A DNA stretch of 64,000 bases, taken from the NCBI RefSeq assembly GCF_053078305.1, contig NZ_CP166879.1; one strand, written 5' to 3'. Made by a program: the position numbers. Shown piece by piece: positions 9,001-15,000 of this stretch; the first letter of the stretch is position 1; each line of letters opens with the position of its first letter.

Positions 9001-12000
9001 TGAACGATACGATACCTCAATGGTTTATTGCGGTGATAACCTGAAGGGTGAGATTGAGGCTATTTATAATAGTCTTGAGAGGCGTCAGGTTTAGAGCAGG
9101 AATGGTGAGTAGCCATCTTATTGATCGTTTTCGAGCGTAAGATGGCTGAATGGAATGGCTATTATTGCACAGTCCTTAATTATAACATTCATACCGACAT
9201 GATTATCTTCTGTCCGGAAGAATCAGAGGCTGCGGTTTCAGACTGTCTGCTGGTACATTCCTTTCTCCGTTAAAAACCATAACGGGTTCATTATCTTCGT
9301 CTGTCAGCGGATTGAATGGCGGTATATTTTCAGTACGAATGCCGGTCAGCCACTGAAAAATACCTGCGAAATGACGGGCACTGATTTTCCTGCTGACGGA
9401 CTGATGAGACGTGATGTCACTGGCGGTAATAATCAGGGGAACGCTGTAGCCTCCTTGTATATGGCCATCATGATGAACAGGATTGGCACTATCGCTGACC
9501 GACAGCCCATGGTCAGAAAAGTAAAGCATGGCAAAATGACGGGAATGCCGGCGAAGGATACCATCAAGCTGACCGAGAAAGTTATCCAGTTTACTGATGC
9601 TGGCGAGGTAACAGGCAATCTTTCGGGGATACTGCTCCAGGTAATGATTCGGCCAGGAGTTAAGTAGGTCACACGGATTCGGATGAGAGCCAATCATGTG
9701 CAGGAAAATCACCTTCGGAGAGGATTTATCCGCCAGCGCACGTTCTGTTTCCTGTAACAACAACATGTCATCCGTTTTACGGGAAGCGAAGCTGCCTTTC
9801 TTGAGGAAAACGGTATGCTCCGCATCAGAAGCAATAACAGAGATGCGTGTGTCATGCTCTCCCAGTTTTCCCTGATTGGATATCCACCATGTGCTGTATC
9901 CTGCTTTTGCTGCCAGCGCCACCACGTTGTTGCCGGAATCAGGGTTCTGCTCATAGTCATAAATCAGTGTCCGGCTCAGGGAAGGTACGGTACTGGCTGC
10001 TGCCGATGTATAGCCGTCAATAAATAAACCGGGAGCCGTATTCAGCCACGGTGTGGTTGGTACGGGATAACCATATACCGACATATAATCCCTGCGCACA
10101 CTCTCACCAGTGACAATCACAATCGTGTCATACAACGGTGCTCCCGGCAGGATTTTCCAGCTGTCAGCCCTGTGCTGACTCAGTTGTTCATAACGCTGCA
10201 TTTCACGCAATGTGTCAGTTGTCCCCACAACGGTTCCTTTAACCATCCGCAACGGCCAGCTGTTTACAGAGCATAATACGAACAGCAGCAGTGCCAGCCA
10301 GTTACGGTGACCGCGGTGGTGTGTCCGCCAGAAAATAACCATGAACACCAGAATCGCGGCACTGACCAGAAAATGATAAACAGGAATCATCCCGGTAAAC
10401 TCCGCAGCCTCATCCGCCGTGGTCTGCAACAACGCGACAATAAAACTGTTGTTGATTTTACCGTACGTCATACCCGCAGGCGCATACAGTGCACAACAGA
10501 ACAGAAATAACAGAGCTGTAATGGATGTAAGGGTATTTCTGTGTGCAAGGAGCAGAAGAAGGAACAGCAGCAACACATTCCCGGTGGCATTCTTCTCAGT
10601 GTATCCGCATGCAATTGTGGTTATGACAGAAATAACAAAAAAGAATAAAAACAATAAAATCCGTGGTGTGTTGTCCGGACAAAACAGTTTTCTGATATTC
10701 ATCGGAGTATATCGGTAACATTATTATAAAGAGAATAAAATAATAAGAAAAACAGAAATATCCTGTAAAGCAGATAACAGACAACCCTGCAGTATAATTA
10801 CGTGATGGCAGTCTGGCGCGTAAGCCTGCATAAAACATTATTGTACTCTGTGTATCAACGGGTTACCCGGCCAGAACAGCCAGTACAAAAAATGCCCCCG
10901 CAGTGAGCATGGCAAGTTTTCCCCATACAATATGTTTCTCACCCCTCTTTTGTTTTCTTTTTCTCATATAAATGCTGGTGTTTACTCAGACGGAAGAGTA
11001 TTTCGTCTGTGCCAGTCTTCCGGATTATCCTGCTCATTTGTTCATGCATCCGGATACGTTTAATACAGAAGTCGATTTTAGCAACTGCCAGGTTTTTGTT
11101 GAGAGTCAGCGTGGCAGCATGATATGCATGCTGCCACAATATTAATGCCCGGGCATAATCATGATGTATTTCCGCATCTTCAGCTGCTGCCGTTATCTGC
11201 GCCCAGGACATCCGGCGCAGATACGGATAATGCAGTGTGACATCCGGGGAATGGTATGCCATTGAATACTCCTGTGGAGAATCATCATCTCCGGTTTATT
11301 CTCCTCCGGGGACGCAGACGCCCCGGAGAGCGAATTCTCCCACGTTTTCTTTTTTCAGCGCGCTGAAGGCATCCCGACAGGCTTTTTCAGTACGGAACTC
11401 CTGACTGTGAACGGCCAGTGTGGGTTGCCGGGCATCGCCGGAGGAGACATTAAAGGGGGATGAGAGCCAGAAAATCAGTATCCACATAGAACAGCCTTAT
11501 GATTTTGTGCGTTTGTATTTTTGCAGAATGCCGGGAGCCTGCAGGGGCGCTTCGTGAATTTCACGGATACATTCTGCGTCATGAAAATTTTCTCTGTACC
11601 GGGTTCATTCCGGCAGTATGTGGTGCATATGGAGCATTCTGTTCCGTGCGGCGCTGAGCTCATCAATATAGCGCCCCCGGAAAACGGGACCGTCATGCAT
11701 ATAGCACAGAGGGAACACTTCCACATTGTCACAATATTCCCGCCCCCACTCTTTTGTGACGGAGGCGTCATCGGTGTAAAACCATGTGTCGGGCATGCCG
11801 TTAGCCAGAAAGCAAATGTTCCATACATCGGGTACCGTAGACGTCTGTCATCATTCATACGGGTTATCTCATTCTATGGGCTGAATGCTGCTCAGAATCA
11901 GCCTGCTGAGACTGTCAGGGCTGCCGCAGCGACGACCGGTCGTTTTGCTGTAGCATTCCCGGCGTGTGTGGCACCAGGCGGCCGGTGTTTCATGAAGACG

Positions 12001-15000
12001 AACGCGCCGTGTTTGTTCTTTGTGGATAAGGAGTCCGGTGTGAGTTTTTATGTTTTTCATGTGCTTTCCGTTTCGTTCTCTGTGACAGCTGTGTCACACA
12101 TGAAGGGGGAATGTAACATTCAGAATCTTACTGAAAATGTGCCATTTGTGGGCACCGGTGATCAATCCTGTATTCAGGTTCTGTGTCACAGTTCCGGATG
12201 AGTGGAATATATGGACGTAAAAAGCCGACATTACTGCCGGCTTTGGTCATGGCGGTTAAGTAAACAAATCGACTGATACTCCGGAAATGTATACCCGGGC
12301 GGCAGGTCCTGAGCATAAAGGGCCCTCAGGCCCTTTTGAATACGGAGTATCAGAACGAGTAACGGAAGTTAGCGTTGACAGCATTATCAACGTTGTACTT
12401 ACCAAAGGCGGATTTCTCAAACTCCAGTCCAAAGCGGACGTTGTCCCTGATTTCTGCATTCAGGCCAACGGACATCAGCATACGGCTGTCTTTTTCACCT
12501 TTGATACGTTTTTCACCTGATGCGTCCCGCAATACGGTTTCGCCGTTAGCCAGCAGGTCGAACTGGTAGCCCAGACCGGCACGGGCTGTCACTTTCCAGT
12601 CCTTACCTGAGAAGGATTTACCCACATCCACACCGGTACGACCAATCAGCGGATTGTAGTCCCTGTCCTTCATGGACAGATGCATCCCCTGGTCCTTCCA
12701 TGCAAACTGTTTACCGGATACAGCACCGTAAACCAGTTCTGCCTGTGGCTCAATCCAGGTATCCTCAGTGACATGACAGCGGTAGCCTGCTTCAGCACCG
12801 GCATACCATGAATGCGTACTGTAATCACGGGTTCCGAGTCCGGCAAAGGTTGCGGTGTACTCATTATCATGATGAACATACTTACCAATCAGGTCGATAT
12901 AGGCACCGGAATCAAACATGGCGGAAGCATAGAGTCCGGCCCCCACAGATTTTGTTTTACCTTTGAAAGCATCAGCAGAGGCACTGCTGTCAGTATGTGT
13001 GACAGTGAAGCCGGTAAACAAATCCAGTCCGTCCAGCTCATGTTTTTTGTCGACACCGACCTGAACATGTGTGTGGTTGTCACTGAAACCACCACCGGCA
13101 GAGCCGGTTCCGCTCATGATACGTGCCCATGCGCCAGCTTCACCATTGATGTCACGCAGGTCACCCATACGTTTATTCAGGTTGTTGACCTCACTCAAAA
13201 ATGATTTGTACCCCACAGATGCAAGGCCTGAGGCACTTTGGGTTGCGGCAGGATTTTCTGCCATCCTGTACCCGGTCAGGTTCCATGTTGTTTTATCTCC
13301 GGCGTCTATAGCTGTAATAACAGGCGTGACATTGCTGAAACCTATTGCCTGTTCACTTCCTTTAAAAACATCCTTACTGCTGTTCCCCGGTGCACTCACC
13401 AGTTCAATATCCAGTTTTTCTCCGGTGGGTTTGTTCAGAAAATCAACCAGCAGAATATTGTCCTTACCTGACAGCTTTTGGTTTACTACCAGCTTATCCG
13501 CATTTTTCAGGTCCGTACGCATGGCATACGCAGTGCCATTCGTCGTCAGCTCATCAACCGTCAGTGTATGGAATGCTTTATTCGCTGCACTTCCTGTAAA
13601 ATATGTCATGCTTCCGGTATTTTTTAACGAGCGAAGTGAGGAGTCTCCTGTCAGTTGCCACCAGGTGTTGTTCACAGTGGCAGATGCTGACGGGGCATGA
13701 ATTGCACCGCGGTATGCCGTATTAAAACCACTCAGTAATCCGACCGCAACTCCCCGGGATGCCTTCTCAGACAATATGCCCTCTTTACCTGATTCAGTTC
13801 CGAAGCTGATTGTGGCCTGTTTATCAGAAATAATATCACCAACAACAGATGCCTGGTCTCTGGCTTTCAGTACTGATGAATCAGACATCAGTTTAAATCC
13901 GCCATCAGCCATATTGATGGTCGGTAAAAAAGCAGCATCATCTGAATTCACTGGTGTACCGGTAAGCAGAAGGGAAGCGTCACCAATATCAATGCTTCCA
14001 CTTGTAAACAGCCCTCCCTGAGCGGTCAGCGCTCCTCCTTTATGAATATTCAGGGAGCTGTTTATAAATGACGATGCATCTGAGAACAGGACTGAAGATG
14101 AAGAAACATTGATATGACTGTCTTCAGCCGTAACCCCGCCACGAAAATTATCGCGGATATCCAGTGCTGATTTTTGCTCCAGAGTGATATGCCCTGTATA
14201 GGAGGATGTTCCTGCGGCAGCAGATTTCCCTTCAACACTGATGACATCATTACCTGTTCCGTCATTTTTATCAGTAAAGACTGTATCTCCGCCGATAATA
14301 ACAGTGCTCTGGTTAACGGCCCTGATATTCCCGTTCATAAATGCATTACGGGACAGACTGAAGTCCGCATTATTAAGATTCAGATTGTTGAGTGAGAACT
14401 CCCTGTTCTCCCAGTCACTCTGCGATGCAGAAACAGTTTGCCCTGCATGAATAACCGGGTGTCCCTGGAAGATAAGAGCACCGTCCTGTTTTGACATATC
14501 TCCTGATATACTGACAGAGCCATCAAGCGTTAAAATATCATTGCCTGCCAGTTTGGGGATTTCCACACTGGTATTACCGGTTATTTTTCCATGATATATA
14601 TATGATAAAGGAGCGCTTTCCTGCATTTTCATCTGAGTATATAACCCAATTGCTTTTTCTTTATCCTTACCCAGCCTTTGCCATTCGCTCTGATTATTCA
14701 GCGCGCCAAACAAAGCGCTGCCATATCGGTTACTTTTCAACAGATAATAATTTCCGTCAAAGGTCGTATAATACAGATCACCTGGTTTGCCTGTCCCCCC
14801 CATTATATTTATATTATTAACAACCACATTTATTTCTTCTGCTTTCAGAGGAGATAACGAAAGTGTGACTATGGATTTATCTGTCTGATTATCGTTGCTG
14901 ATTTCAGCACCATAATCTGCAGCCTGAAGACGGGAAAAGGTAAAATCATACCCATTTAAATCCAGTTTCCCACCCCGATATCCCCAGCTGATATTATCTG

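Follow-up and report, generated by a model that had tools for sequence, protein, structure and literature searches.

Does the DNA between a phosphoethanolamine-transferase-like gene and a SPATE protease gene on contig NZ_CP166879.1 (assembly GCF_053078305.1) hold genes, the remains of genes, or neither? The interval, positions 11296-12201 of the 64,000-nucleotide (nt) stretch that we analysed (the window, whose positions serve as coordinates throughout), had been described in an earlier note as a decayed coding region containing a frameshifted gene of unnamed family. Its neighbours are as that note has them, with the transferase-like gene at 9203..10702 and, on the other side, a SPATE of 1363 amino acids (aa) at 12350..16441 that RefSeq names EspI in near-identical genomes. 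We consider it highly probable that the interval is a fragment of a conjugative plasmid that has hitch-hiked 3′ of espI, and that only the middle one of its three genes, orf121, is dead while the flanking 63-codon genes, orf63a and orf63b, are intact.

A pseudogene in the middle of a three-gene cassette

The cassette genes orf63a (11869..12060), orf121 (11497..11858) and orf63b (11296..11487) follow one another in this order, all co-oriented on the minus strand, with gaps of 9-11 nt inside the trio. Part of orf121 is a minus-strand open reading frame (ORF) of 63 aa at 11605..11796, MPDTWFYTDD..., which lies out of frame inside a Cys-rich ORF of 127 aa, an arrangement already recognized in the earlier note. 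Three-frame translation indicates that the MPDTWF frame extends in both directions, upstream as QTSTVPDVWNICFLANG and, beyond its TGA, as TRYRENFHDAECIREIHEAPLQAPGILQKYKRTKS, where it closes at a TAA at 11497-11499. The 63-aa ORF thus corresponds to residues 23-85 of a longer protein that begins at the ATG at 11856-11858.

The conceptual orf121 protein is, well beyond chance, 90% identical to an intact 121-aa protein, P0001 (E = 7.6e-68, 100% query coverage), and 76% identical to intact P0003, the representative of a cluster of 694 sequences (E = 6.1e-53). It is similar over its full length to WP_011310096.1 (121 aa), which is encoded beside epeA at the same locus as P0003. More generally, hypothetical proteins of 121-122 aa from I-complex and pO113-type plasmids (WP_011310096.1; WP_001302696.1 on an IncK2/Z plasmid; clusters P0003 and P0050) are full-length homologues with identities of 76-90% and 53%. 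Their genes occupy the same position between orf63a and orf63b, and the window encodes the same motif, RM..MH...D.EC.RE..EAP.QA, mostly downstream of the TGA. Gene order agrees as well, since orf63a lies upstream and orf63b downstream on the same strand with gaps of ~10 nt when the window is compared with five related loci (L001-L005), for two of which (L004 and L005) the order can also be read from the annotation. The window copy differs from the plasmid genes in residing in a chromosomal island instead of a conjugative plasmid and in carrying a 4-bp deletion and a nonsense codon, so that an uninterrupted frame of ~121 codons with the C-terminal motif is absent. The orf121 of the window is therefore a pseudogene of this family and not a functional member.

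Both lesions were placed by base-level alignment of the window with L001-L005; three further loci, L006, L013 and L014, were also compared. The deletion, at 11843..11849 on the minus strand, converts GACAGACAGACG to GACAGACG and shifts the frame after codon 5. Around the start codon L001 and L003 read ATGAATGATGACAGACAGACG and the window reads ATGAATGATGACAGACG, that is, one CAGA unit of a short tandem repeat fewer. The extra four bases are present in L001 and L003 and absent from the window and from L006, L013 and L014, in each of which the junction was confirmed base by base, and a 71-nt probe spanning the junction matches 24 complete E. coli records at ≥99% identity. These alignments and the intact P0001 and P0003 give the suspected frameshift a definite site. 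The second lesion, missing from the earlier note, is an in-frame TGA at 11605..11607 (minus strand) that replaces the CGA of Arg86 and ends the 63-aa MPDTWF ORF. Codon 86 is CGA in L002, L004, L006 and L013 and TGA in the window, L001, L003 and L014; among 71 family members, no fewer than 90% have a basic residue (K or R) here. The TGA cuts off the invariant residues D95, C98, E101, A105, P106, Q108 and A109.

Translation of orf121 would be expected to start at ATG 11858 and to leave the frame after five codons, the CAGA unit having most plausibly been lost by replication slippage. Even if the frame were restored, the stop at Arg86 would precede the conserved C-terminal helical-hairpin motif. 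As judged from the sequence, no orf121 product is expected in this genome, and the pattern of lesions would therefore reflect a relaxation of selection that followed the departure of the block from plasmids, on which the cassette is an accessory module kept by selection.

The decay of orf121 is of an ordinary kind for a gene in a pathogenicity island and has already been flagged in RefSeq, where the hypothetical protein gene at the orthologous locus is called a pseudogene by PGAP in three related records: AC0JZQ_RS24275 ('internal stop', in an espI island), JFX59_RS24565 ('internal stop', on an espP plasmid) and JFY30_RS17765 ('frameshifted', in another espI island). All three are the same gene in the same place 3′ of espI or espP as in the window, and the TGA is identical in the window, AC0JZQ_RS24275 and JFX59_RS24565. 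The window combines this TGA with the 4-bp deletion, a combination that among the loci read is shared only by L014, which has an extra 1-bp deletion.

Lesions accumulate independently while the flanking genes are conserved

Across related lineages the lesions of orf121 are both independent and cumulative, as would be expected of a pseudogene. L004 and P0001 have none; L001 and L003 have the TGA only; L006 and L013 have the 4-bp deletion only; and L002 has neither of these, its single lesion being a different 1-bp deletion near codon 105. The window carries deletion and TGA together, and L014 adds to these a further 1-bp deletion at 11548. Four linked single-nucleotide polymorphisms (11642, 11607, 11586 and 11584) part the TGA-type from the CGA-type alleles in surroundings that are otherwise near-identical. 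This suggests that the split may have arisen by allele exchange, through a short recombination or gene-conversion patch, rather than by recurrent point mutation.

Intact copies of the genes elsewhere are under purifying selection. Between L004, on a pO113-type plasmid, and L005, on an IncK2/Z plasmid, the ratio of nonsynonymous to synonymous substitution rates (dN/dS) is 0.106 for orf63a, 0.113 for orf121 (dS = 2.1) and 0.065 for orf63b, at dS values of 1.5-2.1 that are near saturation. Ratios this low (0.065-0.113) despite near-saturated dS mark all three as genuine protein-coding genes. In comparisons of the TGA lineage with intact copies, dN/dS is 0.5-0.8 for orf121 and 0.07-0.18 for the flanking genes, and the high value for orf121 fits relaxed constraint.

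The claim that the region has decayed as a whole does not hold. The frame at 11296..11487, which the earlier note had listed among its ORFs, is orf63b, identical to the intact annotated protein WP_000264907.1, and the frame at 11869..12060, which it had not mentioned, is orf63a, annotated by RefSeq as WP_000789656.1 in strain STEC2018-553, likewise intact and subject to purifying selection. An intact homologue of a listed ORF, as orf63b provides, is what the earlier note had named as evidence against its reading. Both 63-codon genes are open in six of six copies aligned, and orf63a is conserved in all of them.

Porcine isolates are numerous among the carriers of the 4-bp-deletion allele, which hints at a host-associated island lineage. 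Decay is also seen elsewhere in the island: strain JNEC-KY171 has espI split into two coding sequences, JNEC-KY175 has a frameshifted espI, and in the porcine strain KSC9 orf63a is interrupted by an IS66-family element and the ANR-like gene described below is cut short by an IS3 element. These sites lie at 4455-7505 in L001, 2560-3780 in L014 and 9280-11895 in L006.

Reading frames that are not genes

All four ORFs listed for the interval in the earlier note, three on the minus strand (63, 127 and 63 aa) and one on the plus strand (226 aa), are present where it placed them. The Cys-rich 127-aa ORF (11475..11858, minus strand) is an artefact that arises because the 4-bp deletion sends orf121 into the wrong frame, making it a run-on from the true orf121 start. 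Indeed, its first five codons, MNDDR, are the N-terminus of the undeleted L001 and L003, and thereafter it has no similarity to the homologues. It matched no NCBIfam family, and its only Pfam matches were three below threshold (E of 0.2-0.3, ~12 bits against cut-offs of 25-27). The 226-aa ORF (11521..12201, plus strand) is not a gene, as had been supposed, but an antisense shadow, which exists because the 4-bp deletion joined two antisense open stretches. It is open in the window only, with 2-8 in-frame stops in each of five homologues and longest open runs there of 130-141 codons, and it has no Pfam match. Upstream of orf63a, a Pfam scan of the ORFs revealed no coding signal in segment 12061-12201; minus-strand ORFs of 45 aa (12094..12231) and 62 aa (12128..12316), which had no match in that scan, are probably non-coding. 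For annotation hygiene, neither the 127-aa nor the 226-aa ORF merits a gene call, and the two 63-codon genes should be regarded as real. Beyond this the importance of the locus is small, although the family, which is conserved across hundreds of plasmids, might offer plasmid-biology screens a minor target.

A plasmid-derived flank that travels with SPATE genes

Several lines of evidence tie the cassette to conjugative plasmids. In a tblastn search the conceptual orf121 protein had matches in 505 plasmid records; typing classed 489 of these as conjugative, and query coverage was at least 80% in 481. The block occurs in 349 of 5426 complete E. coli genomes, at 381 places on plasmids and 100 on chromosomes. 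Homology between the window and SPATE plasmids runs from within the protease gene to ~10865, and homology to an IncK plasmid covers exactly 12060-11312, from orf63a through orf63b. An IncFIB/IncI-gamma/K plasmid has the cassette beside epeA and upstream of trbA, and an IncK2/Z plasmid has it in the hok/pnd-trbA interval, where a gene for a helix-turn-helix-domain protein, a nuclease gene and dqlB intervene before trbA. The 3′ flank of espI is thus a piece of I-complex-plasmid DNA, one that accompanies the protease genes espP, espI and epeA, and we infer that espI probably arrived in the island together with ~1.3 kb of plasmid DNA. That the flank is common to the espP and epeA loci supports a plasmid origin of the SPATE module before its appearance in chromosomal islands. 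Repeat searches over 10600-12450 found nothing marking the end of an insertion sequence or an att site.

Two more specific placements of the cassette were considered and dropped. It is not part of the IncI1 core backbone, as R64 is without it between trbA and excA. A role in conjugation was set aside since the genes reported, from transposon-directed insertion-site sequencing, to be needed for transfer of the I-complex plasmid pMS7163B (PMC10286972) do not include such small ORFs; carriage of the cassette by pMS7163B itself is not established.

The left edge of the SPATE-linked block falls at ~10803-10870, homology to espP and epeA plasmids stopping at ~10863-10872 and homology to subAB islands at 10803. 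In the islands that carry subAB (subtilase cytotoxin), subAB takes the place of the phosphoethanolamine-transferase gene as the neighbour. At the other side, the 289-bp spacer 3′ of espI (12061-12349) is ~82% identical to hundreds of E. coli plasmids of 92-94 kb (H154-H168, the size of pO157), only from query base 50; these plasmids apparently stop matching just upstream of orf63a.

The SPATE-linked version of the cassette is closed by a fourth gene, of 107 aa (10939..11262, minus strand; annotated as WP_000323314.1), which lies outside the interval. The ANR (AraC negative regulator) family includes Aar of enteroaggregative E. coli (PMC4983702, PMC5570504), and the 107-aa protein aligns with profile positions 6-52, that is 47 of the 54 positions, of NCBIfam NF033650 (ANR_neg_reg; 28.2 bits, E = 1.2e-6). 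It is longer than the 54-position model and scores under the NCBIfam cut-off of 32 bits, and so we refer to it as ANR-like only. The gene is present in the espI, espP and epeA versions and is absent from the IncK backbone.

Alternative explanations

Some observations weigh against the picture of a dead gene between two live ones. Intact P0001 has the same divergent central segment as the TGA lineage, and the high dN/dS of orf121 in that lineage is thus partly allelic. Where the 4-bp deletion is the sole lesion, PGAP annotates an ORF of 106 aa (WP_053286511.1) that begins at an alternative start further downstream, so that this deletion alone may leave the gene partly alive. The flanking genes, for their part, may be silent here. 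Between espI and the cassette the minus strand has an intrinsic-terminator-like hairpin (12221..12244) with a 10-bp stem and a U5 tail, conserved in the espP and epeA copies and predicted to fold at -15.6 kcal/mol (z = -3.64; none of 200 shuffles folds as well). This strong putative terminator would cut the cassette off from espI, and because of it, and because the minus strand from the hairpin to orf63a (12061-12220) revealed nothing promoter-like, expression of the cassette in this genome is uncertain.

That the whole of 11296-12201 is decayed or non-coding remnant DNA, as one broken gene, the absence of a coding signal in 12061-12201 and the failure of PGAP to annotate orf63a in several genomes might imply, is very unlikely. 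It is already refuted for 11296-11487 and 11869-12060 by the identity of orf63b to an annotated protein, by the open frames of both 63-aa genes in all six copies, by their dN/dS of 0.07-0.11 at dS of ~1.5-1.6, and by the phage homologues that both have. A functional truncated product, for example the N-terminal α/β domain translated from an internal ATG at 11796 as the 63-aa ORF, is about equally improbable. Residues 23-85 do span most of the predicted N-terminal domain and the first long helix, and PGAP does accept the N-terminally shortened 106-aa form in strains with only the deletion. Such a product would nevertheless be without the first strand and without all of the invariant residues from D95 to A109, no Shine-Dalgarno-like sequence precedes 11796 (TTTCTGGCTAACGGC ATG), and L014 has gone on to accumulate further lesions.

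We give still less credence to the idea that both interruptions are bypassed by programmed recoding, with frameshifting at the CAGA site and UGA read-through or selenocysteine insertion at 11605-11607. The TGA allele is common to espI islands and an espP plasmid, and has hence persisted for some time, but homologues have CGA/Arg or Lys at this codon, the bases at 11843-11852 (GAT GAC AGA C) contain no X XXY YYZ slippery heptamer, and lesions that vary by lineage and reach three in L014 form a pattern of decay and not of a conserved signal. Rfam at E ≤ 1 returned only two chance-level matches in the region and no recoding element, although no dedicated search for a selenocysteine insertion sequence was made. 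Just as little probability attaches to the frameshift being an assembly or sequencing artefact: the deletion does fall within a short tandem repeat, where indel errors are typical, but the 24 E. coli records with the same junction were assembled independently and, as described above, three loci were checked at the level of single bases.

Phage relatives and possible function

Searches for function gave little for any of the three genes. Scans of the window ORFs and of intact homologues placed orf121, orf63a and orf63b in no Pfam, NCBIfam or PADLOC family, and in PHROGs orf63a and orf63b matched only families of unknown function, none of the three genes finding a named family. The IncK copy of orf63a matches phrog_1226 over 1-63 of 67 positions (E = 7.1e-17), a full-length profile match through which orf63a can be assigned to this family by way of its IncK orthologue, and the IncK copy of orf63b matches phrog_3766 (E = 2.6e-11). 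Homologues of orf63a were recovered by tblastn from 103 phage records, among them those of Stx2a phages, mEp460 and Klebsiella phages; orf63b is 44% identical to a stretch labelled 'EaD protein' in Klebsiella phage 2b. Three cysteines of orf63a (C30, C36 and C45) were considered as a zinc-binding motif, an idea rejected on finding that they vary in the phage homologues.

The orf121 family itself is narrow, as a HMMER search over 1.84 billion representatives returned 38 proteins at E ≤ 0.001, many of them fragments. Its C-terminal ~50 residues are a module common to phage and prophage proteins of 60-220 aa, and the distant carriers of this module have N-termini in common with EaA. The Pfam entry PF27050, absent from the Pfam copy that we scanned, is precomputed on six distant orf121 relatives. 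An AlphaFold2 model of P0003 (mean predicted local distance difference test score 80.6, predicted template modelling score 0.45) has an N-terminal α/β domain, with strands at 13-20, 28-30 and 47-52 and a helix at 33-42, followed by a long C-terminal helical hairpin formed by helices 59-86 and 96-120. The model has no specific fold match, a Foldseek comparison with viral structures having returned no hit at E ≤ 0.001. A profile search of PDB sequences was likewise empty at E ≤ 1.

Early regions are where the phage homologues of orf63a are located: two genes upstream of an Ead/Ea22-like gene in VT2phi_272 and mEp460, within the early region of phage Flotzy with an exonuclease gene and the integrase nearby, and after the replication genes in a Klebsiella phage. 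The likeness is to the 'ea' early-region genes of lambdoid and P22-like phages (phrog_1226, phrog_3766, EaA, EaD), the window orf63a being 38-54% identical to phage proteins of 67-70 aa. In contrast to the plasmids, no full orf63a-orf121-orf63b trio was found in phages, where the gene after orf63a (79 aa) is unrelated to orf121. On these similarities, the cassette belongs to the same poorly understood accessory gene pool of mobile elements as the phage 'ea' genes. Judging from the size and fold of its products and from its neighbourhood, which includes the ANR-like gene, our best guess is that it encodes small factors of the mobile element that bind proteins or act in regulation, and not enzymes.

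A more far-reaching possibility, which we put forward only tentatively and regard as rather unlikely, is that the trio, with the ANR-like gene as a fourth member in the SPATE-linked version, is an operon of plasmids and phage early regions kept by selection, in which the orf121 hairpin is a new protein-binding domain. If so, the hairpin, with its invariant R-M..M...D..C..E...AP.QA that is not in the Pfam copy searched, might act on a target in the host or in a rival element, for instance in regulation or counter-defence, and the repeated loss of orf121 after chromosomal transfer would imply that it is needed only in the plasmid or phage life cycle.

Other features of the window

Just past the espI stop codon (12350), the minus strand has a second, GC-rich hairpin (12317..12336) with an 8-bp GGGCC stem that is conserved in the alignment; it is predicted to fold at -15.9 kcal/mol, yet its z is only -1.5.

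Right after the island integrase, a plus-strand gene at 5579-9094 encodes a 1171-aa helicase/phospholipase D (PLD) protein that matches PADLOC MkoC, of the Mokosh type II anti-phage defence system, from end to end (E = 0, 1687 bits); in NCBIfam it has weak helicase and PLD matches only. The end of an SPI-7-type integrative element (ParA, dnaB-PI) occupies positions 1-3537. ARAGORN finds no complete tRNA in the window; segment 3618-3670 resembles the 3′ part of a tRNA-Phe gene, aligning from inside the annotated tRNA-Phe of KSC9, and a second integrase follows at 3865-5127. Together these features suggest two islands in tandem at a Phe-tRNA site.

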